Of a DNA stretch of 64,000 bases, positions 30,724 to 47,246 are shown one piece after another. The translations under genes were made by a program, and so were the position numbers. Under the pieces are notes generated by a model. It was given only the letters and a program-made list of their open reading frames with translations, had not been told where the DNA came from and did no database searches. Position 1 is the first letter of the stretch; every line of letters starts with the position of its first letter. Origin of the DNA: Sphingomonas sp. (GTDB lineage Bacteria > Pseudomonadota > Alphaproteobacteria > Sphingomonadales > Sphingomonadaceae); contig JAFKLY010000009.1 in NCBI GenBank assembly GCA_017304655.1, positions 117,136 through 181,135 of the forward strand, given 5' to 3'.

Positions 30724-30815
30724 GCCGCGCCGAGCGATACGACATTTTCCCCCTGGCGGTTCGAGCGGTTTCCGCTTCTATCCGCTTGTCGGGATCAACA
30801 GGCGGGAGGCACGTG

Positions 30816-32858: not shown

Positions 32859-32877
32859 ATCCTCGGACTGCCGGTCT

Positions 32878-32900
32878 GCCGGGAGGGCGTGCCTCCCGGC
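32878..32900 (-). promoter_or_regulatory. intercistronic GC-rich stem-loop between precursor gene and DoxX
   Basis: GCCGGGAGG (32878-32886) is perfectly complementary to CCTCCCGGC (32892-32900) around a 5-nt loop. There is no U-tract. Confidence 0.5.
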
Positions 32901-32908
32901 ATCGCGCA

Positions 32909-33184: not shown

Positions 33185-33234
33185 CTGTCTCCTTGAATGG
33201 CTTGCCCGGGCCGATCGCCGGACATGCCGCGGAG

Positions 33235-33260
33235 TTCGCGAGGAAGAAGGCGACGGTTAC
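33235..33260 (-). promoter_or_regulatory. ECF (SigF-type) promoter for the DUF2282 precursor-DoxX operon
   Basis: The minus strand reads GTAACC (33260-33255), a 16-nt spacer and CGAA (33238-33235), about 50 nt upstream of the start codon. Confidence 0.65.
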
Positions 33261-33304
33261 GCCGGGCACCACGCAAATATTTTCGCACTGGCATCGCGCG
33301 GCGT

Positions 33305-33329
33305 GTAACCTTTCCAGCGCGGCGACGAA
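33305..33329 (+). promoter_or_regulatory. ECF (SigF-type) autoregulatory promoter for the sigma/anti-sigma operon
   Basis: GTAACC (33305-33310), a 15-nt spacer and CGAA (33326-33329), 22 nt upstream of the ATG at 33352. Confidence 0.6.
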
Positions 33330-33351
33330 TGCCCCTGTCACAGGAGCATGA

Positions 33352-33888
33352 ATGCGGGCGAACGAGGAGCAGTTGAGAGGCTGGATGGTAGGGGGACTGG
33401 ACGGCATCGCTGCCGACCATGCCTGCCTGCTGCGCGCGCTCGTGCCTATCCTGTCGGCTTTCTATGGCCGCCGCGTGTTCGCGTCGGACGATATCGAGGA
33501 TCTGGTGCAGGAGACGCTCATCGCCGTTCATACCCGCCGTGCGACCTATGACCGCGATCGGGCCTTCACGGCCTGGCTGTTCGCCATCGCGCGCTACAAG
33601 ATGATCGATCATTTCCGCCGCAGCCGCAGCACCGTGCCCATCGAGGAACTGGAAGCGATATTGATGGTCGAAGGCTTCGAGGCCAGCAGCGGCGCGCGGC
33701 TCGATGTCGAGGATCTGCTCGGCACCTTGCCCGACAAGCAGGCGCGGATGATCCGCGCGATGCATCTGGAGGGCGCCAGCGTCGCCGAGGCGGCCGCGGC
33801 GAGCGGCTATGGCGAATCCGATGTGAAAGTGTCGGTACATCGCGGCCTCAAGGCGCTGGCGGCCCGCATCCGGGGGAGCGGGTCATGA
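33352..33888 (+). CDS. sigF: ECF RNA polymerase sigma factor (SigF-like)
   Basis: Region 2 DLVQETLIAVHTRRATYDRDRAFTAWLFAIARYKMIDHFRR and region 4 QARMIRAMHLEGASVAEAAAASGYGESDVKVSVHRGLKAL. The stop overlaps the next gene. Confidence 0.85.
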   Translation: MRANEEQLRGWMVGGLDGIAADHACLLRALVPILSAFYGRRVFASDDIEDLVQETLIAVHTRRATYDRDRAFTAWLFAIARYKMIDHFRRSRSTVPIEELEAILMVEGFEASSGARLDVEDLLGTLPDKQARMIRAMHLEGASVAEAAAASGYGESDVKVSVHRGLKALAARIRGSGS

Positions 33889-34526
33889 ATACCGATCGCC
33901 TCATCGACAGACTCGCTAGCGATGTAAGGCCGGTGCGCCGGAGTGCTGTCAGTCGGCGCCTCGCGCTGGGAATAGTCATCGGCGCTCTCGTCTCTGCTGG
34001 CCTCGTGATCGCCACGCTCGGCGCGCGCCCCGATCTCATGCTCGCCATGCGCGGTTTCGGCTTCTGGATGAAGTGGTCCTACACGCTCTCGCTGTCTGCC
34101 ATCGCGATCTATGCCACGGCGCGGCTCGCGCGGCCCGATCCGGGGCGCCTTCGCGCGCTCTGGCTGATCGCCATTCCGGTGACATTGCTCGCCGGTGTCG
34201 GCGTCCTCGAGCTGATGCACACTCCACCGAGCGAATGGCTCGCCATGTGGCTGGGCCGCAGCTGGAGCAAGTGCCCTTGGCTGGTGTTCGGCCTTGCCAT
34301 GCCGATCTTCATCGGGCTGCTCTGGTCGTTCAGGCGCTTGGCGCCGACCCGTCTGCGCGCGGCCGGTGCAGCTGCAGGTCTGGCCGCGGGCGCCTTCGCA
34401 GCGACCGTCTATTGTCTGCATTGTCCGGAAGTCTCGGCGATCTTCGTGCTGACCTGGTACACCGCAGGCATTCTGCTCGCTGCCAGTCTCGGCGCTCTTG
34501 TCGGGCCGAGACTTTTGCGCTGGTGA
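33885..34526 (+). CDS. nrsF: NrsF-family (DUF1109) six-helix membrane anti-sigma factor
   Basis: N-terminus MNTDRLIDRLASDVRPVRR followed by six hydrophobic helices. ATGA-coupled to the sigma gene. Confidence 0.8.
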   Translation: MNTDRLIDRLASDVRPVRRSAVSRRLALGIVIGALVSAGLVIATLGARPDLMLAMRGFGFWMKWSYTLSLSAIAIYATARLARPDPGRLRALWLIAIPVTLLAGVGVLELMHTPPSEWLAMWLGRSWSKCPWLVFGLAMPIFIGLLWSFRRLAPTRLRAAGAAAGLAAGAFAATVYCLHCPEVSAIFVLTWYTAGILLAASLGALVGPRLLRW

Positions 34527-34527
34527 T

Positions 34528-34553
34528 GTAACCGGCTCGCGGGTCGCTCCGAA
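34528..34553 (+). promoter_or_regulatory. ECF (SigF-type) promoter for the 6-Cys precursor-MNIO-DUF2063 operon
   Basis: GTAACC (34528-34533), a 16-nt spacer and CGAA (34550-34553), 43 nt upstream of the ATG at 34596. It starts 2 nt after the nrsF stop codon. Confidence 0.65.
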
Positions 34554-34595
34554 CTAATGACGCCAACCCGGCACAACCATTTCGGAGTATCCCTC

Positions 34596-34859
34596 ATGAG
34601 CACTTTCCGCACGGGCGTCAGCTTCGCCGCATCCGCCGCCCTCGTCGCGATCAGCGCCGCCGCCGTTCCGACAGCCGCCGTCGCCAAGGGTGCCGCTAAG
34701 ATCCATTGCTACGGCATCAACACCTGCAAGGGCACGTCTGACTGCAAGACCGCCAAGAATGACTGCAAGGGCATGAACGACTGCAAGGGGCAGGGCTTCA
34801 AGGAGGTTTCGGCCAAGCAATGCTCGGCCGCTGGCGGCAGCCTGACCGAAACGAAGTAA
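34596..34859 (+). CDS. bufA: 6-Cys secreted RiPP precursor (bufferin BufA2 / BUF_6/12Cys-like)
   Basis: Signal MSTFRTGVSFAASAALVAISAAAVPTAAVA, then core KIHCYGINTCKGTSDCKTAKNDCKGMNDCKGQG..QC (C-x5-C-x5-C-x6-C-x5-C-x12-C). GGAG lies 8 nt upstream. Track start 34557 lies inside or just after the promoter. Confidence 0.8.
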   Translation: MSTFRTGVSFAASAALVAISAAAVPTAAVAKGAAKIHCYGINTCKGTSDCKTAKNDCKGMNDCKGQGFKEVSAKQCSAAGGSLTETK

Positions 34860-34866
34860 GCGCTCC

Positions 34867-34902
34867 GGCCCGGCGGTTCCCCCTGATCCCATCCGCCGGG
34901 CC
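34867..34902 (+). promoter_or_regulatory. intercistronic GC-rich stem-loop between precursor gene and MNIO gene
   Basis: GGCCCGGCGG (34867-34876) is perfectly complementary to CCGCCGGGCC (34893-34902) around a 16-nt loop. There is no U-tract. Confidence 0.5.
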
Positions 34903-34925
34903 ACCCTCTCGTCGCGAGACCTATC

Positions 34926-35756
34926 ATGATCCCATCCTTTGCCGGCTTCGGCCTTGGCCTGCGCAAGCAGCATTATCCAGACTTCCTGGAGCATCGCATC
35001 GGCGTGGATTTCGTCGAGGTCATCTCCGAGAATTTCATGATCGATGGCGGCCGGCCGAAACGCATCCTGCGCGAGGTGCGCGAGCGCTATCCGGTCGCGC
35101 TGCACGGCGTCTCGATGTCGGTCGGCTCGGCCGATGGCGTGGATCGCGCTTATCTCGCGCGGCTGCGGGCGCTGGTCGACGAGGTCGAACCGCTGTTCGT
35201 GTCCGATCACCTTTGCTGGACGCGGTTCGGCGGATTCAGCTCCCACGACCTGCTGCCGCTGCCCTATACGCAGGAGGCGCTGGACATCGTCTGCGCCAAT
35301 GTTGCGATCGCGCAGGATGCCCTGGGCCGGGCGATGCTGATCGAGAACCCGTCGAGCTACGTCGCTTTCGAGGATGACATGATGACCGAATGGGCCTTTC
35401 TGGACGCCGTCTGTGCCCGGACCAGCTGCGGACTGCTGCTCGACGTCAACAATGTCTTCGTCAGCGCCACCAATCATGGCTTCGATCCGATCGCCTATCT
35501 CGACGGCGTGCCGCATGATCGCGTCCGCCAGATCCATCTCGCCGGCCATTCGCAGCGCGACACGATGCTGATCGACACGCATGACAGCCCGGTCCCGGCC
35601 TCGGTCTGGGATCTTTATGCCCATGCCCTGCCGCGCCTCGGCCCGGTCGCGACGATGATCGAGCGCGACGATGCCATCCCGCCTCTGCACGAACTTCTCG
35701 CCGAACTGGATCAGGCGCGCGCGATCAATGCGCAGACGACGAGGCTGGCAGCATGA
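34926..35756 (+). CDS. bufB: DUF692 / MNIO (multinuclear non-heme iron oxidative) RiPP-modifying enzyme, BufB-like
   Basis: GFGLGLRKQHY, FVEVISENF, LHGVSMSVGS, VSDHLCW, LLPLPYT, LIENPSSYV, LLLDVNNVFVSATNHGFD, and IHLAGH. Confidence 0.9.
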   Translation: MIPSFAGFGLGLRKQHYPDFLEHRIGVDFVEVISENFMIDGGRPKRILREVRERYPVALHGVSMSVGSADGVDRAYLARLRALVDEVEPLFVSDHLCWTRFGGFSSHDLLPLPYTQEALDIVCANVAIAQDALGRAMLIENPSSYVAFEDDMMTEWAFLDAVCARTSCGLLLDVNNVFVSATNHGFDPIAYLDGVPHDRVRQIHLAGHSQRDTMLIDTHDSPVPASVWDLYAHALPRLGPVATMIERDDAIPPLHELLAELDQARAINAQTTRLAA

Positions 35757-36493
35757 GGCTCGCCGAGTTGCAGCGCGATTTTTGCGCTTGTCTGACGGCG
35801 GAAGGGCTGGCCTCGTTCGGCCCGTGGGCACGCACGGGCCTCGCCGTCTATCAGAACAACTACCGCGCGCAGCTTGCCGCTTGCCTGGAGGAAAGTTTCG
35901 AAAAGACCCGGCAATGGATCGGCAGCGAAGCTTTTCACGAAGCAGTGGTCACCCATGTGGAACGAATACCACCAAGCAACTGGACGCTCGACGCCTACCC
36001 ACGAGATTTCCCAGAGACGCTGGCGATGCTCTATCCGATCGATCCGGAGGTCGCCGAACTCGCAAGCCTTGAACTAGCGCTCGCCGAGGCGTTCGTCGGA
36101 CCGGATTCGGCGAAGCTGACCGCCGAGTTGATTGCGAACACGAACTGGGATCATGCGAGACTGATCTTCGCGCCAACCCTCGAAATCCTGACGCTGACGA
36201 CTAATACATTGGCCATCTGGACCGCTCTCGCGGAGGATAGCTTGCCGCCAATGAGCGCCTTGTTGCCGGCAGAAGGCGCGATGATCGTCTGGCGCGACGG
36301 CGAAGTTCCGCGTTTCCGTGCAATCGATGCCGCCGAACTTCGCGGGATCCTGACCATCAAATCCGGCACAACATTTGCCGATCTTTGCGCTGCGATGGTT
36401 GAGCATGCTGGGGAGGCGGAAGGCGTTACACAGGCTGGCGTCTGGCTTGGCGAATGGCTCAAGGACGGCATGCTCGTCGACATCATCGAATAA
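35753..36493 (+). CDS. bufC: DUF2063-type MNIO partner protein, BufC-like
   Basis: ATGA overlap with the MNIO gene. LAVYQNNYRAQLAACLEESFEKTRQWIGSEAFHEAVVTHVERIPP is typical of the DUF2063 N-terminal domain. Confidence 0.8.
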   Translation: MRLAELQRDFCACLTAEGLASFGPWARTGLAVYQNNYRAQLAACLEESFEKTRQWIGSEAFHEAVVTHVERIPPSNWTLDAYPRDFPETLAMLYPIDPEVAELASLELALAEAFVGPDSAKLTAELIANTNWDHARLIFAPTLEILTLTTNTLAIWTALAEDSLPPMSALLPAEGAMIVWRDGEVPRFRAIDAAELRGILTIKSGTTFADLCAAMVEHAGEAEGVTQAGVWLGEWLKDGMLVDIIE

Positions 36494-36502
36494 GGCTTGG
36501 CT

Positions 36503-36568
36503 GATTACGCCAACATAACCGACATTCGACCGCTCGAAACGCCTACCTAAAACCTGCCGTTCATTCAT
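36503..36568 (+). repeat. att-like bipartite direct repeat, copy A
   Basis: Block 1 is GCCAACATAACCGACATTCG (36509-36528). A 23-nt unrelated spacer follows, then block 2 ACCTGCCGTTCATTCAT (36552-36568). It matches copy B 18/20 and 16/17 with identical spacing. Confidence 0.7.
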
Positions 36569-36768
36569 CATGCTGTTGCGGCCTTGCGATCGACCAGCCT
36601 TGGACAAAGCGGGCATGAGCGACGGCTTGGGCGAATGGTCGCTTCATCCGGAAGCCGTCTTTTCATCCAAAGTTTAGCTTTGCCGTCTTGCGACGGGGGC
36701 TGCCAGGATGCGCCGGGGCCAACTGGAACACTGTGGCCATCGCCTTGGCCGGCCGCCCCGGCTGACCT

Positions 36769-37671
36769 TTAACGCCGTAGGCGACGAGCGATGTGCGTAG
36801 ACATGAAATCAACGAAGACGCGTACCTTCGGCAGTGGGTATTGGCTCGCGGGCCATAGAAGGTGAAGTGCCCCGGTTTCCTGCGCCGACCCCTCTAAGAG
36901 TTCGACGAGTCGCCCGTCATCGATGCTCGATCGCGCAGCAAAATCGGGCAAGTGCGCGATGCCCCGCCCCCGAATTGCCAGTTCAAGGAGCGGCTCCATT
37001 ATCGTCGCCGTTATGGTCGCGTTGGGTGACACTGCTTCGCCGTCAGAAATGACAGGCCAAGGTATGAGCCGCCCGGTTTCCGCAAGGCGCTGGCGCAGGC
37101 AGGCATGACTAGCCAAGTCCGACAGGGACTCTGGTCGTCCTGACCGCGCGATGTAATCAGGAGAAGCGACGAAGCTCCACCCGAACTCCCCCAGTTTTCG
37201 ATGTCGCAAGCGGCTGTCAGTCGGTTCGCCCGATCGAATTACCGCGTCGAAGCCCTCGTCTATGACGTCGACGAACCGGTCGTTGATATCGAGATCTAGC
37301 TGGATATCCGGGTAAGCTTCGTTGAACGCGGTGATCGCCGGCAGCAACAGTGTAGGCTCGACAGGAAGGCCGATCTTCAACTGGCCGTGCGGCGCAGCGC
37401 GGGCGTCGGAAACCTCCGCCTGGGCGGCTTCGATCTCGCTGAGGATACGACGGCACCGATCGAGGAACAGCGTCCCTTCCTCCGTGATCGCGATCGATCG
37501 GGTCGAGCGATGGAATAGCTGGACCGATAGCTGCTCTTCGAGCTTCTGGATCGCCTTGCCGATCGCGGAAGGCGTCAGCCCCATCGCTTGGCCCGCGAGC
37601 TTGAAGCTCCGTCTCTCAGCCGCCAGCACAAAGGCCTGGATGGCGGCAATACTCTCCACCTGAATACGCAT
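36769..37671 (-). CDS. LysR-family transcriptional regulator
   Basis: HTH FVLAAERRSFKLAGQAMGLTPSAIGKAIQKLEEQL plus a substrate-binding domain. Confidence 0.9.
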   Translation of the reverse strand: MRIQVESIAAIQAFVLAAERRSFKLAGQAMGLTPSAIGKAIQKLEEQLSVQLFHRSTRSIAITEEGTLFLDRCRRILSEIEAAQAEVSDARAAPHGQLKIGLPVEPTLLLPAITAFNEAYPDIQLDLDINDRFVDVIDEGFDAVIRSGEPTDSRLRHRKLGEFGWSFVASPDYIARSGRPESLSDLASHACLRQRLAETGRLIPWPVISDGEAVSPNATITATIMEPLLELAIRGRGIAHLPDFAARSSIDDGRLVELLEGSAQETGALHLLWPASQYPLPKVRVFVDFMSTHIARRLRR

Positions 37672-37682
37672 GGTAGAGATAT

Positions 37683-37701
37683 ATTCTTTATTGTCCGGAA
37701 T
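37683..37701. promoter_or_regulatory. candidate LysR-type (T-N11-A) binding site in the divergent promoter region
   Basis: ATTC-N11-GAAT inverted repeat (ATTCTTTATTGTCCGGAAT) lies 12 nt upstream of the LysR start and 66 nt upstream of the OYE start. Confidence 0.4.
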
Positions 37702-37766
37702 TATAGCCGTTTTTCATATCATGCGGTCGACCATAAATAGCCAGCGACACGAAACGCGAGGCTCGC

Positions 37767-38915
37767 ATGATGGACGCCCTTTTCAAACCATTCGACCTAT
37801 CTGGCTTGGAGCTGCCTAATCGCATCTTCATGGCCCCGTTGACCCGCTCGCGCGGCCCCGACGACGACGCCACGGATCTCGTTGCCCTCTAATATACGCA
37901 ACGCGCGACCGCTGGCCTGATCGTGTCGGAAGGCTCGCCGATCTCGCATGAAGGCCAAGGATATTTTTACAATCCCGGCATCTTCACCCCTGCACAAATT
38001 GCTGGATGGCGGCGGGTTACAGACTCGGTTCATGCGGTCGGCGGTCGCATGTTTATCCAACTCTGGCATGTCGGACGCATAGCCCACGCCTCGAACCAGC
38101 CTGAGGGCCGCGCCCCAGTCAGCTCGACCGATCGCGCAGCGGAAGGCGCGATGGCGTTTGGCCGCGCCGATGATGGTACAATCGGCTTTGTCCCAGCATC
38201 CCGCCCGCGCGCTCTCGATACCGAAGAAGTAGCGCGCGTCGTAGAAGACTTTGCGACTGCTGCACGCAACGCGATGTCTGCGGGCTTCGATGGTGTCGAA
38301 CTTCACGCGGCGAACGGCTACCTGTTCGACCAATTTCTGAATCCGCATATTAATGATCGGACTGACCGCTACTCGGCCGCGACGATCCAGAGGCGGATGC
38401 GCTTCACCCTTGAGGTCGTCGATGCCGTTAGTGCGGCGATCGGCCCGCATCGGGTGGGCATCCGCCTGACGCCTTACGGGGTCATCGGCTCGGTTCCGAT
38501 GTTCGATGACGCAGAGGAAACCTATGTCGCTCTAGGCAAGGCCCTAGGTGAACGTGGGATCGCCTACTTTCACGTCATGGATCAGACGGGGTTCTTCAAC
38601 ACCCCTGCCGGTCAGAAGCCAACAAGCGAACTTATCAAGGAACTGCTGATCAAGTGGCGCTCGGTCGCGCCGCATACGGCAATCCTGCTGGACGGTGGCA
38701 TGACGAAGGCGCGGGCGAACGAGCTTATCACCAATGGTGTCATCGACCTCGCCGGCTTCGGTCAGCCGTTCATCGCCAATCCCGATCTGGTCGCCCGTCT
38801 GCGCCACGACTGGCCGCTCAATCAGCCCGATCGCGCGACATACTATGAGGGCGGCGCTCATGGCTATGTCGATTACCCCCCGTACCGCCCCGCCGACGAG
38901 CCTGTTGCAGGCTGA
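37767..38915 (+). pseudogene. Old Yellow Enzyme-family NADH:flavin oxidoreductase interrupted by a single in-frame TAA
   Basis: ATG 37767 gives MMDALFKPFDLSGLELPNRIFMAPLTRSRGPDDDATDLVAL, then TAA (37890-37892). The same frame continues YTQRATAGLIVSEGSPIS... to 38915 (track ORF 37923..38915). The family consensus has Tyr at the stop position (ALYYxQRA). Confidence 0.75.
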
Positions 38916-38957
38916 CGCTAGCAACGCACCGCACCCCAAGCGAAGAAGGATAGATCC

Positions 38958-39731
38958 ATGCCCCAATATTCAGAACTGGGGGGCAAAGTTGCTCTCGTAA
39001 CCGGCGCCGGCTCCGGCATCGGCAGGTCGACCGCCATGGCGTTCGCAGGACAAGGCGCGCACGTCGTCGTCTCGGATATCAACCCCGATGCTGGCGAGGA
39101 AACTGTCAAGCTCATTCAGGAGGCTGGCGGCCAAGCGATCTTCGTCAAAACCGATGTAACCAAGGAAGGCGAGGTGCAGGCTGTGGTCGACCAGGCTGTC
39201 TCGACATTCGGGCGGCTCGATATCGCCTTCAACAACGCCGGCCTTACGCAAAACTCGGCCCCGCTCGCCGAGCAATCGTCCGACACTTACGACGAAATTT
39301 TCGACGTCTCCGTGCGCGGCGTGTGGCTTTCAATGCGCGCCGAAATCGCCCAGATGCTCAGGCAAGGGGGCGGCACGATCGTCAACATGGGGTCAATGTC
39401 GGCCGTCGTCGGCATTCCCGGTCTCACGACCTATTCAGGCTCCAAACATGCCGTCTTGGGCCTCACGCGGGGCGCTGCTCTGGACTATGCGAGGCAGGGC
39501 ATTCGCATCAACGCCGTCGGCCCGGGGACGATCGACACGCCTATGATCGACCGTTTCGTGGAGCTTGCGGGATCGGACAGCGTCATGGAGCCAATCCGCG
39601 CTGCGCATCCGATCGGCCGCACCGGCAAGCCCGAAGAAGTCGCCGAAGCGGTGCTGTGGCTGGCCTCCGACGCATCGAGCTTCGTCGTTGGCCAAATCCT
39701 CATGGTGGATGGCGGCTACTCGGTCCAGTAA
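38958..39731 (+). CDS. short-chain dehydrogenase/reductase (SDR)
   Basis: TGAGSGIGRS, NNAG and YSGSKHAV catalytic motif. Confidence 0.9.
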   Translation: MPQYSELGGKVALVTGAGSGIGRSTAMAFAGQGAHVVVSDINPDAGEETVKLIQEAGGQAIFVKTDVTKEGEVQAVVDQAVSTFGRLDIAFNNAGLTQNSAPLAEQSSDTYDEIFDVSVRGVWLSMRAEIAQMLRQGGGTIVNMGSMSAVVGIPGLTTYSGSKHAVLGLTRGAALDYARQGIRINAVGPGTIDTPMIDRFVELAGSDSVMEPIRAAHPIGRTGKPEEVAEAVLWLASDASSFVVGQILMVDGGYSVQ

Positions 39732-39791
39732 CACCACCTCGCCGGCTCGCCTTCGATAGCGTCGCCGGGGAGCCTTCAAGGGAACTCAGTA

Positions 39792-40625
39792 ATGCAGACA
39801 TGGTTCGTCACCGGCGCAAGCCGCGGCTTTGGCCTCGAAATCGCTCGCGCTGCGCTGGCCGCCGGTAACAAGGTCATCGCAACAGCTCGGGAACGCCAGC
39901 ACATAATCGACGCCCTGCAAGGCGATCATGATCGGCTATGCGCGCTGACGCTCGATGTGACGCAGCCCACCTCGGTCGACGCCGCGTTGCGCGAGGCGAT
40001 CGAGCGCTTCGGCAGGATCGACGTGCTGGTGAACAACGCCGGCTACGGTCAGCTCGGGGCTTTTGAGGAAGTGTCCCGCGACCAGCTCGCCCGCCAGTTC
40101 GACACAAATGTGTATGGCGTCTTTGACGTCACGCGCGTCGTTCTGCCGACGATGCGACGCCAGCGATCGGGCCACATCATCACCATTTCCTCCATCGCCG
40201 GGATGAGCGGGGGTGCGGGATCGTCCATCTACTGCGCGAGCAAGCACGCGGTCAGCGGATGGTCCGAAGCTCTGGCGGAGGAGTTGGCGCCGTTTGGGAT
40301 CAAGGTCACTTGCGTCTATCCTGGGCGCTTCCGCACGGACTTCCTCGATCGCAGCTCGGTCCGCTATGGCGACATTCCCATTGCGGACTACGCCGATTTT
40401 TCGGCGGCCCGCATGGAGTCGCTAGACGCCAACAATCACCAGCAGGCCGGCGATCCGCAAAAGTTCGCCCTGGCTATGGTCGATCTGGCCTCGAACGATG
40501 AACCGCCGGTTTGGCTAGCCGGTGGGTCCGAAGGCTACCGCGTATTCATGGCGAAAGCCGACGCGCTGCGCGACAACGCCGAAAGCTGGAAGGACGTATC
40601 TATCTCGCTTGATGTGGAAGACTAA
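39792..40625 (+). CDS. short-chain dehydrogenase/reductase (SDR)
   Basis: TGASRGFGLE, NNAG and YCASKHAV. Confidence 0.9.
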   Translation: MQTWFVTGASRGFGLEIARAALAAGNKVIATARERQHIIDALQGDHDRLCALTLDVTQPTSVDAALREAIERFGRIDVLVNNAGYGQLGAFEEVSRDQLARQFDTNVYGVFDVTRVVLPTMRRQRSGHIITISSIAGMSGGAGSSIYCASKHAVSGWSEALAEELAPFGIKVTCVYPGRFRTDFLDRSSVRYGDIPIADYADFSAARMESLDANNHQQAGDPQKFALAMVDLASNDEPPVWLAGGSEGYRVFMAKADALRDNAESWKDVSISLDVED

Positions 40626-40765
40626 GGTTCGCCGGCGGCGGCCGAGCACGCCGGGAGGCTGCAGCGCCAGCGGCCGCTTTCGTTTGATTCAGACGATCCA
40701 GTCAGAAGATCGAACGCCACAACCTGGGCGGGAGCCGTCGGTCGCTTGCCTCACAACTGGTGGTA

Positions 40766-40831
40766 GACTCCGCCGACATAGCCGACATTCGCGGGTTAAG
40801 AGTCACTAGTTGATACCTGCCGGTCATTCAT
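40766..40831 (+). repeat. att-like bipartite direct repeat, copy B
   Basis: Block 1 is GCCGACATAGCCGACATTCG (40772-40791, an internal tandem 9-mer GCCGACAT). A 23-nt spacer follows, then block 2 ACCTGCCGGTCATTCAT (40815-40831). It lies 43 nt from the recombinase gene stop. Confidence 0.7.
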
Positions 40832-40838
40832 ATGGTAA

Positions 40839-40869
40839 ACCGGCTTCCCGGATATCTCGGGAAGCCGGT
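40839..40869. terminator. strong stem-loop immediately downstream of the recombinase gene
   Basis: ACCGGCTTCCCG (40839-40850) pairs perfectly with CGGGAAGCCGGT (40858-40869) around a 7-nt loop. T-rich flanks occur on both strands (GGTTTCAAATTT / TTTACCATATG). Confidence 0.6.
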
Positions 40870-40873
40870 GGTT

Positions 40874-41506
40874 TCAAATTTCGGTCCGTTCGGATAGCGT
40901 CAAAGCATCATCGACATCTACGCCAAGGTATCTGACGGTATTTTCGATGTTGGTGTGCCCGAGCGGGATTTGCACAGCGCGAAGATTGCCTGTGGCTTTG
41001 TAAATCAGCGCTGCCTTGGTCCGCCGCATTGAGTGCGTACCATATTCCCGTTTGTCGAGGCCGATCGTCGTCACCCATTCGTCGACGAGGCGGGCATATT
41101 GTCGCGTGCTCAAATGACCGAGGTAATCGATCCTGCTTGGAAATACGAAATCGCAGATCGTCCCAGAGCGCCGATCTAGCCAGACTTTCAGGCTCTTGCG
41201 TGCCTCAGACATGATCTCGAATTGTACCGGGCGACCAGTCTTTTGCTGAATGACGGTCGCACGATCACGAAAGGAGCCTGCGCTGATCAGATCGCCTATC
41301 CTCATCTTCACCAGATCGCAGCCACGCAATTTGCTGTCGATCGCAAGATCGAACAAAGCTCGATCGCGCAGGCGCCTGTGTTCGTCGAGATAAAAACGGA
41401 TTGCCCAGATATCACGCGGCTTGAGCGCGCGCTTCGGTCCAACATTCTGTCCTGCATTCCAAGGACGCCGATCATGTATGGCGGGGTCAAGGTCTGAATG
41501 GCCCAT
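40874..41506 (-). CDS. tyrosine-type site-specific recombinase/integrase (short form)
   Basis: Catalytic-domain pattern DSKLRGCDLVKMRIGDL, THSMRRTKAALIY, LGHTNIENTVRYLG (R..HxxR..H..Y). ATG at 41506. Confidence 0.85.
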   Translation of the reverse strand: MGHSDLDPAIHDRRPWNAGQNVGPKRALKPRDIWAIRFYLDEHRRLRDRALFDLAIDSKLRGCDLVKMRIGDLISAGSFRDRATVIQQKTGRPVQFEIMSEARKSLKVWLDRRSGTICDFVFPSRIDYLGHLSTRQYARLVDEWVTTIGLDKREYGTHSMRRTKAALIYKATGNLRAVQIPLGHTNIENTVRYLGVDVDDALTLSERTEI

Positions 41507-41588
41507 GATAGTTCTCCGATGGCCGGAATTGGCCAGCGAGAGTATAGTCCCAATGCCCCGCAACCTTCAGACAAGTGTCGCGCGACAC

Positions 41589-41617
41589 TTGACGATTCTG
41601 CATTGCTTTGGTATATC
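41589..41617 (+). promoter_or_regulatory. candidate sigma-70 promoter of higBA
   Basis: TTGACG (41589-41594), a 17-nt spacer and TATATC (41612-41617). The ATG at 41624 follows only 6 nt later, which would give a near-leaderless mRNA. Confidence 0.4.
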
Positions 41618-41623
41618 CCAAGA

Positions 41624-41914
41624 ATGGAAATCGAGAGCATCAGGCACAAAGGCCTGCGCCGCTTCTTTGAAACGGGCAACGCTAAAGGTTTGATTGGAGA
41701 TGCTGGGCGACTGCGCAAGATGCTTGCATTCGTCGACGCTGCGGAAAACCTTGAAGAACTGTCCGTGCCACCGAACTTCGGACTGCATGAGCTGACAGGT
41801 GATCGGAAGGGAAGCTGGTCGATGACGGTTACGAGAAATTGGCGGATGACCTTCGGGGTGAATGACGAAGGTGCGCTAATCGATATGGATTTGGAGGATT
41901 ATCATGGCGCTTAA
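41624..41914 (+). CDS. higB: HigB-type (RelE/ParE superfamily) toxin
   Basis: MEIESIRHKGLRRFFETG...LHELTGDRKGSWSMTVTRNWRMTF...DLEDYH matches the plasmid-maintenance killer protein pattern. Confidence 0.85.
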   Translation: MEIESIRHKGLRRFFETGNAKGLIGDAGRLRKMLAFVDAAENLEELSVPPNFGLHELTGDRKGSWSMTVTRNWRMTFGVNDEGALIDMDLEDYHGA

Positions 41915-42236
41915 GATGCACCCTTCGCTCGCCGTCCACGTTGGCGACTGGTTGAAGACGGAAATCGTAGAGCCCGCGCAGGTCAGCGTGACGGCTTTGG
42001 CCGAGCATTTTGGCGTATCGAGGCAGGCATTGAGTACGTTGCTGAACGGCAATGCAAACCTGTCTGCCGATATGGCTATTCGGTTTGAGAAGGCTTTCGG
42101 GATCAAAGCCGACACTCTGTTGCGGATGCAGACGGCCTATGAGCTGGCCCAGGCTCGCGCGCATGAGCAGGACATTAAGGTTCAAAAGTTCGCCAGAGCG
42201 GCCCGAAACCTGCCATTTACTAATATTTTCGACTAA
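41904..42236 (+). CDS. higA: HigA-type antitoxin (XRE helix-turn-helix)
   Basis: HPSLAVHVGDWLKTEIVEP..VSVTALAEHFGVSRQALSTLLNGNANLSADMAIRFEKAFG. It overlaps higB by 11 nt. Confidence 0.85.
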   Translation: MALKMHPSLAVHVGDWLKTEIVEPAQVSVTALAEHFGVSRQALSTLLNGNANLSADMAIRFEKAFGIKADTLLRMQTAYELAQARAHEQDIKVQKFARAARNLPFTNIFD

Positions 42237-42257
42237 GCTCTGAATCGCTCTAACATT

Positions 42258-44060
42258 TCATGCGGGCTTGCTCCTGTAGTTTTCGAGCAATCTCTGCTGC
42301 CGCTCCTCGCGCACCACGAGACCTTCATTGAGCAGCAGTTCAAAGCGATGCTCATCCAACGGCGGCGCGAACAGAAAACCTTGCCCCACTGAGCAGCCCA
42401 GTTCGCGCATGATAGCGCGTTCGGCCTCCGTCTCGATCCCTTCCGCGACAACGCGAGTGTCCAGTGCAGCGCCAAGCTTCACGATGCTCTCAACGATCAC
42501 GCGCTTGACGCTGCTTTCCGCCACATCCCGAACGAAACTGCGGTCAATCTTCAGCTCGCTCAATGGAAACCGCTCCAGATAACGCAGGTTGGAATAGCCA
42601 GTCCCGAAATCATCGATCGAAATGCTCACGCCCAGGCGCCGTAAATGTTCGAACGCTCGGCGGATATCGTCCGGCTCCGGGGCCATGAGGTTCTCGGTGA
42701 GCTCCAGCGTCAACCATTCAGCCCGACAGCCCGTCTCCTCCAGCACCCGTTCAACAGAGGCGACCATATCCTGTCGTGTGAATTCCATCACCGACACGTT
42801 GAGCGCAAAGCGGAACGGCGCTCGGCGGCTCTGATTGATCCGTGCAGCATAGGCCGCCAGCGTCCGCAGGCCCCAGGCGCCGATATCCATGATCGCGCCG
42901 GTTTCCTCAGCGACGCCGATGAACCGCATGGGTTGCTGGAGGCCGAATGCACCGTGGTTCCAACGCAGCAGTGCTTCGGCGCCGATCAGGTCCCCCGAGC
43001 CGAGATCGACCTGGGGTTGATAGTGGAACAGCAGTTCCTCATTCGAAACCGCCGATTGCAATTCATTCGCCAGCCTTACGCGGTTGCGCGCGTCCCGATC
43101 GTCCGCCTCCGCAAATGGACGCGGTGTATGATCGGGCAAAGCCTTGGAGTGTTGCAATGCGGCGCCAGCCCGGCGCAGGAACTGCAGCGGGTCGCTGCCA
43201 GCGACGCCAATGGTGTAGCCAGCAGCGAACTGCACCGCGAGTGACGCACCGGGCAGGATGAAGCGCGGCCTCAACAGGTCGAGGACGTCGCTAACGATTT
43301 GCCCGGCCATGCCTACATCGACGAGCTCGAAAGCGAGCACGAAATTATTGCCGTCGATGCGGGATATCGCCACTGCTGGCAGCGTGCCGAGACGCGCGCT
43401 TGCCGAGCAAAGCAGGGCATCGCCAACATCATAACCGAAGCCATTGTTAACATCGTGAAACCGCAAAATGTCGAGCTTGATGACCAGCAGGACGGAGCCC
43501 GCCTGCATCTCGATCTGCGCCAGCCGGTCAAGCAATCCGTTGCGGTCAAGCAGACCTGTCAGGCGATCGACACCAGCCGCGTGCGTTACATCCCGGATGA
43601 TGCCAACGAAATGCGTGAGGTGACCCTGATTGTCGTGAAGCGGCTCGAGACGCAGAGCGTTGCGGAACATTGTTCCGTCCCGCCGGAAATTGCGCAGCGT
43701 GACCGAACAGGCATGCCCCTCCGCAAGGGCAGCGCGTATCTCCGCGAGCTCAGGCTGCAACCGGTCGCTTCCTTGCAGGTAACGGCAATTCTTGCCAATC
43801 GCCTCGCAAGCGGGATAGCCGGTGATCCTCTCGAACGCTGGGTTCACCTGGATGATGGGGTGCCCTCGCAAACGCATGTCGGCGACGAGGACGCCATCGC
43901 TGATATGATCGAGGGCGAGTCGGGAAATAGCGTCCTCAACCGCTGGCTTTTCCGGGCGGTCGATCAGGCTAGGCCATTGCATCACATTGAAATCGGCGCC
44001 TGCTGGCACAATGGCGCCTTCGCCTCCACCATGTATCATCGCGCAAACCTTCGCGGCCAC
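42258..44060 (-). CDS. LOV (blue-light PAS) - degenerate GGDEF - EAL signalling protein
   Basis: LOV signature NPAFERITGY..GKNCRYLQG (Cys codon at 43787-43785), LRNFRRDGTMF and FVGIIRDVT. The GGDEF site is replaced by RIDGNNF. The EAL domain is intact (GAEALLRWNH, DDFGTGYSNL, KIDRSF). Confidence 0.85.
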   Translation of the reverse strand: MAAKVCAMIHGGGEGAIVPAGADFNVMQWPSLIDRPEKPAVEDAISRLALDHISDGVLVADMRLRGHPIIQVNPAFERITGYPACEAIGKNCRYLQGSDRLQPELAEIRAALAEGHACSVTLRNFRRDGTMFRNALRLEPLHDNQGHLTHFVGIIRDVTHAAGVDRLTGLLDRNGLLDRLAQIEMQAGSVLLVIKLDILRFHDVNNGFGYDVGDALLCSASARLGTLPAVAISRIDGNNFVLAFELVDVGMAGQIVSDVLDLLRPRFILPGASLAVQFAAGYTIGVAGSDPLQFLRRAGAALQHSKALPDHTPRPFAEADDRDARNRVRLANELQSAVSNEELLFHYQPQVDLGSGDLIGAEALLRWNHGAFGLQQPMRFIGVAEETGAIMDIGAWGLRTLAAYAARINQSRRAPFRFALNVSVMEFTRQDMVASVERVLEETGCRAEWLTLELTENLMAPEPDDIRRAFEHLRRLGVSISIDDFGTGYSNLRYLERFPLSELKIDRSFVRDVAESSVKRVIVESIVKLGAALDTRVVAEGIETEAERAIMRELGCSVGQGFLFAPPLDEHRFELLLNEGLVVREERQQRLLENYRSKPA

Positions 44061-44386
44061 GATGGTGCGATGGATTTTCTGGGCTTCACCGTTATGCTCG
44101 TGTCGGAATCAGATCGCATGTCATGCCTCCAGGCATGACGATGATGCTTCGGGGTCTGGGGTTCAACGTCGGCGAGGTGACGTTTCGAGACATATAGACG
44201 CCATGTTCGTCCTGGGCATTCCCAAACTGATTAGAGCGCCCAGGCAGCCCGGTTTACGCCGATCGTCTCATCAAATCGTTCGACAGCGCAGCATCGCCAG
44301 AAGCGAGCCGATCCCGTTCGAACCTCTTGGACCGCAAGCAACCAGCCTGATGCTTTGCTGTGGAGCGGCCTACAATGATGATCCGG

Positions 44387-44707
44387 TTAGTAGTCCACAG
44401 GGGCCTCGTCACCCTCCTGAGACTCCAAGGCAATATTGCCAAGGCTGCTTTCGATCAGCCGGAGGTGCGCCAACACGGTATTTTGGAGTTCGCCGCATGC
44501 CGAGACAATCGCGGTGGCATAATCTCTCTGGGGTGCGGCAAGGTTCGTGTCGAGCTTGAGCAGTTCCGCAAATCCGCAGATGTGGGTCAGTGGCGTCCGC
44601 AGATCATGCGACAAGGTATGAAAATAGGTGTCGAACTGGCAATCCTTGCGCAGCGGGATGTTTTGCCATTGCTTGGCGACGTTATGAATCATGTGCTGAA
44701 ATCCCAC
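44387..44707 (-). CDS. HisKA (DHp) domain-only histidine-kinase fragment
   Basis: H-box FHTLSHDLRTPLTHICGFAELL. The ORF stops after about 106 aa with no HATPase_c domain, and none was recognised in the following 325 nt in any frame. Confidence 0.45.
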   Translation of the reverse strand: MGFQHMIHNVAKQWQNIPLRKDCQFDTYFHTLSHDLRTPLTHICGFAELLKLDTNLAAPQRDYATAIVSACGELQNTVLAHLRLIESSLGNIALESQEGDEAPVDY

Positions 44708-44844
44708 GTTCGCGTGGCAAAGCGACCGCCATTCTGCGTTTTTTTAGCTGATCGGTGCGCAGCGGCATTATGTTGCATGTCACGGGTTCTGCATCGAACG
44801 ATGTCTTTCAGCAGCCAGCGTGGCAACATGGATGGCGCGACGTT

Positions 44845-45843
44845 TCAGGACAAAATGGCAGCACCTTCTTCGTCGCTTGCGACTCCCGACCCGCTACTAT
44901 GAAAGCGCAGGCGATACTGGGCGGGCGTCACGCTCATCCTGCGCAGAAATGCGCGCCTGAGCGTCGTTGTAGAGCCAAACCCGGCAGCATAGGCAATCGC
45001 CTTGATCGGGGCGGAACTCTCTTCCAGCAATCGCCGCGCAATATCGATGCGGGTTAGCTCGACATAGGCAACCGGGTTCATCCCCAGCTCGGCCCGAAAC
45101 AGGCGGGAGAGATGGCGCGGGCTTACGCCAGCAATATGCGCAAGGGCTTCGAGGCTCAGCGTCTCGCGCGGATTTTCCAGAATATGCAGTCTGATGCGGT
45201 CAATCGGGCTGTTGGCTGCGGTTTGCGCCGTCAATACTGCGGAGAATTGCGATTGGCCGCCGGGCCGCTTGAGGAAAACAACCAGCCGGCGTGCCACCCA
45301 AAGTGCCAGAGCACGCCCATGATCTTCTTCGATAAGCGAGAAGGCGAGGTCTATGGCCGCAGTGACCCCGGCGGAACTGAACACGGGTCCATCACGCACA
45401 AAGATGCGGTCAGGCTCAACAAGAATGCCTGGAAAATCGGAGGAAAGACGCGCGGCATATTGCCAGTGCGTGGTTGCGCGGCGGCCCTCTAACAGTCCGG
45501 CATGGGCCAAGAGGAATGCTCCGGTGCAGGTCGACCCGTGCCGTCTCGACTGTAGTGCCTGCTCGCGCAACCACTGCTTGACGGAGGCGCTCGGAGGCGC
45601 CGGGAAGCCATATGGCCCCGCCACGATCAATGTGTCGCAGGGCTCGGTCACATCGTCGATGCCAGCATCTGGCACATAAATGATACCCGACGCGCTCCGC
45701 TCAGACGCGCCCCGTTCCGTAACCAGTTTGATGCGGTAGTGAGGACCTGATGCCATCTTGCAATTGGCTTCGAAGAGCGCGTCCTGTAAGCCGGCTATTT
45801 CAAGCAGGTGCACGTTGCTGGGAGCAAAGATTGTAATGAGCAT
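44845..45843 (-). CDS. GlxA-family (DJ-1/PfpI + AraC HTH) transcriptional regulator
   Basis: N-terminal DJ-1-like domain (STCTGAFLLAHAGLL) and C-terminal AraC HTH (LEALAHIAGVSPRHLSRLF, IKAIAYAAGFGS). Confidence 0.88.
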   Translation of the reverse strand: MLITIFAPSNVHLLEIAGLQDALFEANCKMASGPHYRIKLVTERGASERSASGIIYVPDAGIDDVTEPCDTLIVAGPYGFPAPPSASVKQWLREQALQSRRHGSTCTGAFLLAHAGLLEGRRATTHWQYAARLSSDFPGILVEPDRIFVRDGPVFSSAGVTAAIDLAFSLIEEDHGRALALWVARRLVVFLKRPGGQSQFSAVLTAQTAANSPIDRIRLHILENPRETLSLEALAHIAGVSPRHLSRLFRAELGMNPVAYVELTRIDIARRLLEESSAPIKAIAYAAGFGSTTTLRRAFLRRMSVTPAQYRLRFHSSGSGVASDEEGAAILS

Positions 45844-46124
45844 CGCCTGAACTCCCCTCTGCGGCGTAGCGGCGCCACTGATCGGAAAGACAGTAGGCCA
45901 GTAACACTCGATTACCTATTTATTGCGCAGCAGCCTGTCAGGACAGCTCCATGAACGGACGGAGGCTCAAACAGCGATCGTTCGATGAACGGATGGTCGT
46001 CTCAAGTGATTAGCACCCGAAAGCGCATTTACTCGATTGTCCCCGGACGTTGCCACTGCGACGCTTATCTGAACGGAGGGCAGCTTCACCTCACTCGCAC
46101 ATGGCAAGCGGACTTTCAGGACTG

Positions 46125-46144
46125 TCCGACAGAGCCGACGTTCA
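46125..46144 (+). repeat. partial third copy (block 1 only) of the att-like repeat
   Basis: TCCGACAGAGCCGACGTTCA matches block 1 of copy B at 16/20, including the tandem CCGAC 9-mers. No block 2 was found at the expected +23 offset. Confidence 0.4.
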
Positions 46145-46511
46145 TCGGAGCAGCGAATTTGGCCCAGCCGCCTTTGGCAGATGGAGAGATTTGACCGTGA
46201 CCGCCGTCCGCCAGGTTGCGTCACAAGCGACCTGCTGGGGTGGGGAGCCAGTTCCCCGCTTCTGCCTCTCCATCCTTCTTCCCTCCCCCCCCCCACGATG
46301 CCCCGCATGACGCGCGCGCCACTCCCCATCCGCATCGCATTTTCGGCTGTCCTACACCTTGTCCACCGTGGCAGCACGGAGGGACGCCGCCATCAACAGG
46401 CGACAGGACGGACGACGTGAGGCTCTTTCTTATTTGCGGCCCTTCAACAACCCGGCAGCGCAACGTCGCACGCGGGGCAGGCACTGACGCCCGCCTTTTC
46501 CGGCCGGCGCG

Positions 46512-46570
46512 AAAGTTGAGAGAAGCGGAAGTTCACGCCCCCGTGTCGTGAACTTTGTGAACTTCCGGCG
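46512..46570 (+). repeat. 60-bp palindromic repeat element, copy 1
   Basis: AAAGTTGAGAGAAGCGGAAGTTCACGCCCCCGTGTCGTGAACTTTGTGAACTTCCGGCG. The 5-prime arm GGAAGTTCACG can pair with either CGTGAACTT or GTGAACTTCC. It is about 88 percent identical to the reverse complement of 51126-51185. Confidence 0.7.
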
Positions 46571-46692
46571 TCCCGCGCGCTGTTGGATGGGCGACGCGCC
46601 CTTCGCTCACGACCCCGCCGGCCCCTCGCGCCGGTACAGCGCGACTCGATCCGGCCGGATTTCGTCCCTGCAGCCTGGCCACCATTGCGGGG

Positions 46693-46730: not shown

Positions 46731-47156
46731 CCAGGCGGCCGGGCGATCGCGGCGGTTCTTCGTGAACCGGCGAGGAAAGTCCGGGCTCCACGAAACGACG
46801 GTGCCGGATAACGTCCGGCGGCCCCGGCAACGGGGTCAGGGACAGTGCAACAGAGAGCAGGTCACGTTTGTCTTCGGACTTTGGGCTTTGGCCGCGTGAA
46901 CAGTGAAAGGGTGCGGTAAGAGCGCACCGCGCCCCCGGCAACGGTGGGCGGCGAGGTAAACCCCACCGGGAGCAAGACCGAATAGGGGCGGCGCGCGGGA
47001 CTTGTCCCGCTAGGCATGTTTCGGCCGAGACCGCCCGGGTTGGTTGCTTGAGGCCATGCGAGAGCATGGTCCTAGAGGAATGGTCGCCCATCCGCCCGCG
47101 CGTCCCCTTTGGGGATACGGCGGCGGTGGACAGAACCCGGCTTACAGGCCGCCTGG
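46731..47156 (+). ncRNA. rnpB: RNase P RNA, bacterial type A
   Basis: P1 CCAGGCGGCC (46731-46740) pairs with GGCCGCCTGG (47147-47156). Universal blocks are GAGGAAAGTCCGGGCTCC, GGGTGCGGTAAGAGCGCACC, GGTAAACCCCACC, AGCAAGACCGAATAGGGG and ACAGAACCCGGCTTACAGG. Confidence 0.92.
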
Positions 47157-47246
47157 CGCACGGCTCTTCCGCCCATTCTGTCTTGCCGCCTAAACAACCG
47201 GCTGCGGCGGTCGTTCTGGTCCTCAGGTACCAGACCGAGGAAACAC

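Follow-up and report, generated by a model that had tools for sequence, protein, structure and literature searches.

Integrons are the textbook device for the capture and reordering of gene cassettes. In a second group of systems, which includes the integrative and conjugative elements (ICEs) and cis-mobilizable elements (CIMEs) of Streptococcus thermophilus, SCCmec (staphylococcal cassette chromosome mec) and psiSCC elements at rlmH, and the tycheposons of Prochlorococcus, autonomous and recombinase-less elements stand in tandem between direct attachment (att) repeats. These accretion systems form hotspots at one host site (a gene 3' end or a tRNA gene), their nonautonomous units are presumably moved in trans, and their integrases are larger (arm-binding tyrosine or large serine recombinases), often with an Xis. 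The pdif modules of Acinetobacter plasmids and integrative mobile elements exploiting Xer (IMEX) are discrete accessory modules, often toxin-antitoxin genes, that lie between short tyrosine-recombinase sites in varied contexts (PMC12907356, PMC7399989). Cury et al. found no integrons in 243 alphaproteobacterial genomes and called this absence "extremely puzzling" (PMC4889954). Here we analyzed a 64,000-nucleotide (nt) stretch of Sphingomonas sp. DNA ("the window"; contig JAFKLY010000009.1, positions 117,136 to 181,135), in which two copies of a bipartite direct repeat lie near the gene for a small tyrosine recombinase. These repeats are probably double-stranded recombination sites of the adjacent 210-amino-acid (aa) recombinase that mark joints in a tandem array of putatively circularizable modules. 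A literature search found no description of this combination of recombinase, site, and array.

Each of the two blocks that make up the repeat occurs twice in the window. Block 1 (GCCRACATARCCGACATTCG) lies at 36509-36528 and 40772-40791, and a search of both strands of the 64-kb window with up to three mismatches gave no further match, where shuffled sequences gave an expectation of 0.02; block 2 (ACCTGCCGKTCATTCAT) was found only at 36552-36568 and 40815-40831 (0.24 expected). The two copies, here called site A and site B, share an identical 43-nt register, with 23 unrelated nt between the blocks and identities of 18/20 in block 1 and 16/17 in block 2. The original prediction had placed two bipartite copies at 36503-36568 and 40766-40831, and this was borne out, the conserved part beginning a few nucleotides inside both starts. 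It had also put copy B 43 nt from the stop codon of a short tyrosine recombinase gene; we measured 42 nt between site B and that codon (40874-40876), and the gene product matches PF00589. Site A begins 14 nt after the bufC stop codon. With a profile from 140 copies of other genomes, A and B were the only strong sites in the window, both on the recombinase strand. The GC content falls from about 0.65 to 0.55-0.63 across 36 to 46 kb, where more AT-rich spacers had been noted before, and the genes listed earlier for the two modules agree with our Pfam matches and gene calls.

Relatives of the site were collected with a profile built from 19 copies and then from 140 unique copies. Contigs or loci from other genomes or metagenomes that were used for comparison are labeled with L-numbers (L001, L150, and so on). 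On the recombinase strand, the site is about 62 bp long and reads aTGAACGaAcGGCaG..TTTC-N20-GAAyGnCnGCTwT^GTyGGCG, the full profile consensus being aTGAACGaAcGGCaGsTtTCrr-N~20-GAAyGnCnGCTwTGTyGGCG. All of the first contexts fetched showed the same order after the recombinase stop codon: a hairpin, a block-2-like box, about 20 variable nt, and a block-1-like box, at which otherwise identical contigs diverge. The hairpin occupies the same place in other loci, with a different stem sequence and its complementarity kept. Among 83 unique recombinase loci, 75 had enough downstream DNA, and 68 of these genes (91%) had a site within 200 nt past the stop codon, at a median distance of 45 nt. Site orientation followed that of the recombinase for 184 of 190 sites, with 6 opposite. 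Loci had up to 8 sites, at a median spacing of 1.6 kb (range, 0.16 to 9.7 kb); L084 (Caenibius sp. WL) and L089 (Stakelama marina) had 5-8. Site density was 246/Mb in 0.94 Mb of recombinase loci versus 2.1/Mb in 1.4 Mb of bufC control loci, an approximately 100-fold difference, and all three control matches fell in one S. xanthum locus; five backbone relatives had no sites. Because of this density difference and the absence from the backbone relatives, we conclude that the repeat is dispersed only in company with the recombinase, which is the opposite of what the original prediction had named as grounds for its rejection, a dispersed intergenic element unrelated to the recombinase.

The S. xanthum locus belongs to Sphingobium xanthum NL9 (L001:15355-18614). 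Its three same-direction sites, about 1.6 kb apart, follow bufC at a distance of 4.6 to 7.9 kb, and their orientation relative to it matches that in the window. The 20-kb locus has no recombinase homolog and carries a tRNA-Phe gene at 20428.

The site showed sequence conservation with no conserved fold. RNAalifold gave no consensus structure for the 140 copies on either strand, and there was no complementary covariation among them. Single-strand DNA folding z-scores for the window copies (-1.06, 0.62, -0.13, and 0.65) were no better than those of shuffled sequences, and an Rfam search left the site unmatched. Because the sequence is conserved with no covariation, fold, or Rfam match, we regard the site as sequence defined and double stranded and not as an attC-like hairpin. 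The same data bear on whether the repeat is a nonrecombinational intergenic element, such as a repetitive extragenic palindrome, small RNA, terminator, or operator, that travels with genes. The repeat is indeed intergenic, about 60 nt long, and dispersed, and left-box-like motifs recur upstream of the GlxA-like regulator gene (45944-46086). However, such an element would not explain why flanks switch exactly inside the repeat or why it keeps a fixed position after the recombinase gene, and with no Rfam match and no conserved structure or covariation in 140 copies (z-scores of -1.1 to +0.65), we consider this explanation extremely unlikely. In the conserved letters of the site, AYGNCNGC occurs three times as a direct repeat, once in the left box and twice in tandem in the right box, and from their sequence these copies may be recombinase-binding repeats. 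Block 1 had been described as a tandem 9-mer resembling an arm-type binding site; the tandem repetition stands as two AYGNCNGC copies, but the arm-type role does not, block 1 being better read as the crossover (core) box and block 2 as the accessory box.

Comparisons among contigs placed the crossover within the right box. In dozens of contig pairs with one flank shared at ≥91% identity, the sequence switches at ...GCTAT | GTYGGCG: a shared upstream flank is identical through ...GCTAT, a shared downstream flank is identical from GTYGGCG onward, and site positions 57-59 go with the downstream flank. Downstream of one recombinase module (94-99% identical), the neighbor differs among five contigs (L161, L138, L167, L158, and L166), and upstream of the start of one toxin-antitoxin-recombinase module it differs among three (L117, L108, and L099). 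Between L084 and L087, the module after the recombinase site has been replaced. L090 and L091 have unrelated DNA downstream of a common recombinase site, and L091 has a second site 8.3 kb further on, with a right part that is 75% identical over 96 nt to its counterpart in the L090 site. Module order was also permuted between near-identical contigs. L150 has the order S1-M1-S2-(toxin-antitoxin + recombinase)-S3, and L156 has the order recombinase-S-M1-S, with a recombinase module 100% identical to that of L150 over 1303 nt and an M1 that is 99.6-99.7% identical. The joint in L156 is chimeric: its left part is that of S3 and its right part that of S1, with the shared TGTCGGCG between them. As judged from these alignments, the difference between L150 and L156 is the product expected when a module leaves one site and re-enters another.

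We propose the following mechanism. The site would consist of an accessory left box (TGAAYGAAYGGCAG..TTTC), about 20 variable bp, and a core right box (GAAYGNCNGCTWT^GTYGGCG), with strand exchange at or just after T^G. A module would start with GTYGGCG, carry 1 to 10 cargo genes, and end with its own left box, spacer, and GAAYGNCNGCTWT. Two sites in the same direction would recombine, with the recombinase as the likely catalyst, and the intervening module would be excised as a circle with one rebuilt site. The circle could then re-enter any resident site, so that arrays would grow, shrink, and reorder. The recombinase gene, often with a divergent toxin-antitoxin pair that may act as a stabilizing element, would be a module itself and therefore an autonomous mini-element, and modules that lack a recombinase would be moved in trans. 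For module 1 in the window, the predicted circle junction reads CGCCGAC^ATAACCGACATTCG on the plus strand, and the predicted chromosomal scar joining bufC to the recombinase reads CGCCAAC^ATAGCCGACATTCG. The original prediction was tandem accretion of integrative elements at a single attachment site. Accretion is supported and extends well beyond this locus, but the single site is not: because each module carries most of its own site, we describe a cassette-type array, found at many loci, and not repeated use of one attB.

The recombinase belongs to the tyrosine recombinase superfamily, its ORF (open reading frame) matching PF00589 over residues 62-215 with 69.6 bits (cut-off, 27.1). In an alignment with XerD (5dcf), its R, HxxR, H, and Y residues coincide with the XerD ones, the segments KLRGCDL, HSMRR, LGHTN, and VRYL pairing with XerD motifs, and the catalytic motifs are invariant in 33 homologs. 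Scores stayed below the cut-offs of all curated NCBIfam models: Xer models gave 39-55 bits (cut-offs, 220-335), XerC and XerD among them 50 and 39 bits (cut-offs, 335 and 330), the integron-integrase model TIGR02249 gave 19 bits (cut-off, 265), and the invertase models NF007370 and NF007371 gave weak matches of 17-20 bits (cut-offs, about 220). An AlphaFold model from a shallow alignment (all sequences ≥82% identical) was too poor for a fold search (mean pLDDT, 55; pTM, 0.48); at this low confidence, the order of secondary structure is consistent with a catalytic domain, and the N-terminal 25 residues are disordered. The recombinase has more than 8000 homologs, retrieved from metagenomes of soil, rhizosphere, freshwater, and wastewater. 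The best 120 of these share 82-94% identity and include Caenibius, Stakelama, Novosphingobium, Altererythrobacter/Tsuneonella, and Allopontixanthobacter, and an identical protein is encoded on contigs L081-L083, which show the same arrangement as the window. Across Sphingomonadales genera the recombinase (82-94%) is more conserved than nearby core proteins (bufC, 50-67%; J-domain protein, 72-88%).

Among solved structures, Xer catalytic domains match the recombinase best (E = 5e-5), and its closest sequence relatives are of the same kind. Together with the absence of a core-binding domain and the S. xanthum sites that have no recombinase nearby, this would fit a scheme in which Xer or another host recombinase uses the sites, as for pdif and IMEX, and the 210-aa protein is a passenger or accessory factor. 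The TATGT of the right box also presumably resembles the XerD arm of the dif consensus. But 91% of the recombinase genes have a site at a fixed distance of 45 nt, and site orientation follows the recombinase. The site is bipartite, about 62 bp, with direct subrepeats, and not a 28-bp site with 11-bp inverted arms and a 6-bp spacer. Relatives that lack the recombinase, and surely have Xer, have no sites. We consider use by a host recombinase very unlikely.

The unit from 42207 to 40769, comprising higBA, the recombinase gene, the hairpin, and site B, recurs as a block in 17 other contigs at 76-89% identity. The higBA-recombinase unit is its own site-bounded module of about 1.4 kb, and the left part of site B is a property of this module. 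The overlapping pair (41904-41914) is predicted to be a type II HigBA system, with matches to PF05015 (52.6 bits; cut-off, 27) and PF01381 (31.2 bits; cut-off, 23). A perfect palindrome, GTCAAGTGTCGCGCGACACTTGTC, in the 117-nt higB-recombinase intergenic region (41507-41623) is kept in all HigBA-type modules, and where the partner is HigBA, ParDE, or Fic, a second motif, GGCCA-N4-6-GGCCATCGGAGAA, immediately precedes the ATG of the recombinase gene. The palindrome and the GGCCA motif may be operators through which the expression of the toxin-antitoxin pair and that of the recombinase are coupled. In at least 21 of 55 unique loci, the gene immediately before the recombinase encodes a type II toxin (Fic, 8; HigB, 7; ParE, 6). 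On this count we rejected the idea that a toxin-antitoxin pair always precedes the recombinase.

This gene company raises the question of whether the unit is a plasmid-derived stability (multimer-resolution) cassette, comparable to Cre/loxP or ResD/rfsF, with the extra sites as cointegrate scars. Distant homologs of the recombinase, at 50-64% identity, are found on plasmids of Alphaproteobacteria and Enterobacteriaceae, sometimes adjoining toxin-antitoxin genes, and some replicons have one recombinase and one site, all of which, like the toxin genes before the recombinase, would be expected of such a cassette. However, the arrays are chromosomal, same-direction, and multicopy, with diverse cargo that is permuted between near-identical contigs, and pure resolution would delete arrays and not build them. 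The distant plasmid homologs in which the site was looked for (Klebsiella, Sulfitobacter, and Gluconobacter) do not carry it. A stability cassette is in our view an improbable explanation. On the Sulfitobacter plasmid pTHAF37_f (L193:4001-8219), a 53%-identical homolog lies directly upstream of Mu-transposase-C/TniB/TniQ genes, which suggests that other mobile elements make use of relatives of the small recombinase, possibly in place of a resolvase.

Weaker sites were sought by scanning the window separately with the right-half and left-half boxes. A third, partial copy (16/20) had been proposed at 46125-46144; it fails the 3-mismatch search and has no left box, but the 140-copy profile recovers it as a right-half site, the third-best right-box match in the window (11.5 bits). 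This site C lies at the GC shift that ends the low-GC array, about 590 nt upstream of rnpB. Because right-box-only boundaries are common in other arrays and right-box matches are rare in controls (2 per 1.4 Mb), we accept site C as the terminal joint. The fourth-best left-box match in the window, site E, coincides with the end of homology between the higBA-recombinase module and other contigs. In alignment with L098, L089, and L120, a deletion of about 50 nt at E took the spacer and crossover box together with the stop codon that higA originally had, and the last 10 or so higA codons (42207-42236) are now relic-site sequence. From this alignment, E appears to be a dead joint that fuses the higBA-recombinase module to the segment with the PAS-GGDEF-EAL, HisKA-fragment, and GlxA-like genes, while A, B, and the recombinase look intact. 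A full-length candidate, D, is a probable degenerate site that coincides with the left edge of a block common to 18 relatives. C, E, and D thus sit at a GC boundary, a module-homology boundary, and a synteny-block boundary, respectively. The array in the window is C, the signaling module, relic E, higBA-recombinase, B, the 4263-bp LysR/OYE/SDR (old yellow enzyme/short-chain dehydrogenase-reductase) module, and A, and the bufferin block that ends at D is possibly a further member. Of the two modules that the repeats were predicted to bracket, the first is indeed found between A and B, but the second is split by E.

Beside site C, three left-box-like motifs (TGAACGGA.GG...) lie at 45944-46086 on the plus strand, in the opposite orientation to the array and upstream of the GlxA-like regulator gene. 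The best of them (46070-46086) is the third-best left-box match in the window and stands 40 nt inside half-site C. This convergent layout of left and right boxes was seen in no other locus.

The coordinates of the sites, modules, and genes are collected in Table 1. Some cargo in the window has decayed: the OYE gene (38049-38915) is short of about 54 N-terminal domain residues, and the 101-aa HisKA fragment stands alone. A 57-nt segment that ends in GTCACGATCCGCTC is present three times at 62283-63040, in copies that have diverged to 61-70% identity and are spaced by 283 and 418 nt, and is probably an internal repeat of a coding sequence.

Table 1. Coordinates of sites, modules, and genes in the window
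Feature	Position	Strand	Remarks
Nonbackbone interval	30721-46687		amiD (Amidase_2) to rnpB; 16 kb; holds the array
Site D, degenerate full-length candidate	32346-32408	-	Profile E = 0.004, 12.6 bits; directly after DoxX stop codon
Site A, full recombination site	36508-36568	-	Family profile 51.9 bits, E = 2e-15
Site A, right (crossover) box	36508-36528	-	Separate box scan
Site A, left (accessory) box	36547-36568	-	Separate box scan
Site A, crossover	36514/36515		Plus strand CGCCAAC^ATAACC
Module 1	36515-40777		4263 bp between A and B crossovers; no recombinase of its own
Module 1, LysR	36769-37671	-	
Module 1, OYE	38049-38915	+	N-terminally truncated
Module 1, SDR	38958-39731	+	
Module 1, SDR	39792-40625	+	
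Site B, full site	40771-40832	-	Family profile 56.8 bits, E = 6e-17
Site B, right box	40770-40791	-	
Site B, left box	40810-40831	-	
Site B, crossover	40777/40778		Plus strand CGCCGAC^ATAGCC
Terminator-like hairpin	40840-40868	-	G+C rich, 29 nt; between recombinase stop codon and site B
Tyrosine recombinase	40874-41506	-	210 aa (start MGHSD...); catalytic domain only; PF00589
higB	41624-41914	+	Divergent from recombinase; Pfam HigB-like_toxin; gene call
higA	41904-42236	+	Divergent from recombinase; Pfam HTH_3; gene call
Relic site E, left box only	42203-42226	-	TAGTAAATGGCAGGTTTC on recombinase strand
Module(s) 3	42227-46130		Low GC; decayed genes
Module(s) 3, PAS-GGDEF-EAL	42258-44039	-	
Module(s) 3, HisKA fragment	44387-44692	-	
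Module(s) 3, GlxA-like AraC regulator	44845-45843	-	
Site C, right box only, terminal boundary	46126-46144	-	Boundary feature 46124-46144; profile match 46126-46151, E = 0.035; minus strand GAACGTCGGCTCT^GTCGGAC
Site C, crossover	46130/46131		Plus strand GTCCGAC^AGAGCCGACGTTC
rnpB	46731-47160		

We determined the extent of the insertion from the rnpB side. Five relatives found in this way (L187-L191, including Sphingobium sp. SYK-6) align to 24001-30720, which holds the che operon and amiD, and again from 46688 onward. Their amiD-rnpB interval is 1.0-3.6 kb long and contains mutually unrelated genes and no sites; it is hypervariable among these Sphingobium-like genomes. From this alignment on both sides of an absent segment, 30.7-46.7 kb is therefore a hotspot insert. 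The same gene order and repeats in all relatives had been named as a result that would overturn the original prediction, and these genomes show the opposite. A comparison of the bufC-rnpB interval had been suggested as the way to an empty site; approached through bufC it failed, since bufC relatives (≤67% identity) share the sigF-buf block (32.4-36.3 kb) and never its flanks, so that the interval could not be compared, but from the rnpB side it succeeded. The segment had been placed between the bufferin operon and rnpB; rnpB is confirmed at the far end, but the nonbackbone stretch measures 16 kb, and the bufferin block may itself be cargo. The M20 peptidase gene at 30669-32231 is also absent from L187-L191, and in SYK-6 additional DNA is inserted between rnpB and the gene for the J-domain protein.

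An insert of this kind could be a classical genomic island, a single element that entered one chromosomal attB, with A and C as attL and attR and B left over from an extra tandem integration. The integrase adjoins a direct repeat (B is 42 nt from its stop codon, an arrangement seen family-wide), the GC content is low from 36.5 to 46.1 kb, half-site C looks like a joint derived from attB, and the segment is polymorphic, with relatives that lack it (16 kb here versus 1.0-3.6 kb in L187-L191). However, the recombinase gene is internal to the array, flanked 3' by full sites and 5' by a relic site, and the 1.4-kb higBA-recombinase unit moves as its own module. The protein lacks an arm-binding domain, and there is no Xis gene. 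Arrays of up to 8 copies of this site family occur at many chromosomal loci, and arrays in other genomes stand in many different, unrelated contexts, with no consistent target gene and no host gene end duplicated in the repeat. As integration targets, we rejected tRNA genes (within 10 kb in 5 of 41 loci, none overlapping a site) and also rnpB, given the distance to the terminal half-site C. We judge a classical island to be unlikely and return to the array of circularizable modules as the better account of this segment.

The cargo of these arrays was diverse. From 90 nonredundant modules, 126 ORFs matched 101 Pfam families, none more than three times. They included response regulators, HWE kinases, EAL proteins, SDRs, flavin adenine dinucleotide (FAD) oxidoreductases, transporters, and toxin-antitoxin genes, with a few defense genes (Shedu SduA, bSEFIR, and an OLD/Gabija-like ATPase). 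By naive ORF calls, 136 cargo ORFs were on the plus strand and 107 on the minus strand, and modules often had their own regulators. In Stakelama marina (L089:7693-8931), the Shedu (SduA) gene is a single-gene module between two sites; this array lies between rpmA and obg, with a degraded P4-type integrase adjoining a tRNA-Ser nearby. The DoxX-DUF2282-sigF-nrsF-bufABC block of the window (32403-36493) is common to 18 other sphingomonads, with different surroundings in most pairs compared, and at L146:441-5830 a DoxX-DUF2282-bufB-bufC cluster shares a site-bounded module with a recombinase. We tentatively suggest that bufferin operons may travel as array cargo.

Several observations weigh against our interpretation of the repeats as recombination sites of the small recombinase. 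Seven of the 75 recombinase genes have no nearby site, some loci have one site only (L186), and the three S. xanthum sites have no recombinase within 10 kb. The repeats within the site are direct and 8-9 bp long (AYGNCNGC), whereas a simple tyrosine-recombinase core should show clear inverted arms, and with no core-binding domain in the recombinase, host factors or Xer proteins could take part. C, D, and E are each weak (E = 0.035, 0.004, and 0.33, respectively). The evidence for permutation and mobility comes from metagenome contigs, and every contig with the exact bufC protein also has module 1, so that no within-species polymorphism was seen. Neither an excised circle nor an empty joint was seen. 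Over 30-48 kb of the window, assembled contigs of four metagenome runs had an even depth of about 14-16x across the array and its flanks and no A/B joint, so that ongoing excision was not apparent; these data consist of assembled contigs only, with joints listed on 21-24-nt sides from other organisms, and are uninformative on excision rather than negative. One lead is a paper on the S. herbicidovorans mobilome, with raised circular-DNA coverage of Xer-like recombinase genes that are not identified there (PMC5737581).

Within the window, the array model accounts for the 9.6-kb low-GC segment and tells the intact joints A and B from the dead joint E. Beyond it, we lean toward the view that Sphingomonadales hold an unrecognized integron-analogous capture system, in which a minimal recombinase, itself a mobile cassette often with a toxin-antitoxin pair, shuffles modules via sites of about 62 bp. 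If this is true, the order has found an independent solution to gene capture, with a different enzyme architecture and a sequence-defined double-stranded site. Such a system would occupy the niche that integrons have among Beta- and Gammaproteobacteria and would be one source of the genome plasticity for which sphingomonads are noted. Together, the site profile and the recombinase would give a simple rule for delimiting accessory regions of these important xenobiotic degraders and would explain the intergenus movement of signaling, redox, defense, and possibly bufferin operons. The compact 210-aa recombinase and its defined 62-bp site might also serve as a tool.

Unlike accretion of ICEs, SCCmec, and tycheposons, the arrays have no common host target, the autonomous unit is only about 1.4 kb, and the modules are much smaller and far more numerous. 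Whereas pdif modules use host XerC/XerD and 28-bp sites, typically in alternating orientation, there is here a dedicated recombinase gene with a fixed, adjacent 62-bp bipartite site in direct orientation. The recombinase resembles FimB/FimE-type invertases in its size of about 200 aa and its lack of a separate core-binding domain, but those enzymes invert DNA between inverted repeats, and the sites here are direct and point to insertion, deletion, and reordering.

The arrays resemble integrons in several ways. In both, a tyrosine recombinase is tied to an array of variable modules in the same direction (184 of 190 sites here, with up to 8 per locus), each module carries most of its own site at one end, cassettes being cut likewise, and the crossover takes place at one fixed position of a conserved core, which is G^TT in integrons and T^GTYGGCG in these arrays. 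Genes for toxin-antitoxin pairs stand in or beside the arrays, and the cargo is diverse and includes a few antiphage genes. The bipartite double-stranded site with upstream direct repeats also recalls attI1, with its simple site and DR1 and DR2. However, the recombinase is 210 aa long and consists of a catalytic domain only, compared to about 320 aa for IntI, and it does not classify as one. The sites are conserved in sequence and have neither the hairpin nor the covariation of attC, an imperfect palindrome that recombines as a folded single strand and keeps its structure while its sequence varies. The recombinase gene lies within a site-bounded module with the array on both sides of it, unlike the one-sided, Pc-fed layout of integrons, and the modules exceed integron cassettes in size, with a median of 1.6 kb and a maximum of 9.7 kb, and have several genes on both strands and their own regulators. 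The system is integron-like in outcome but is not an integron: it works with no IntI and no attC and holds its recombinase inside the array.

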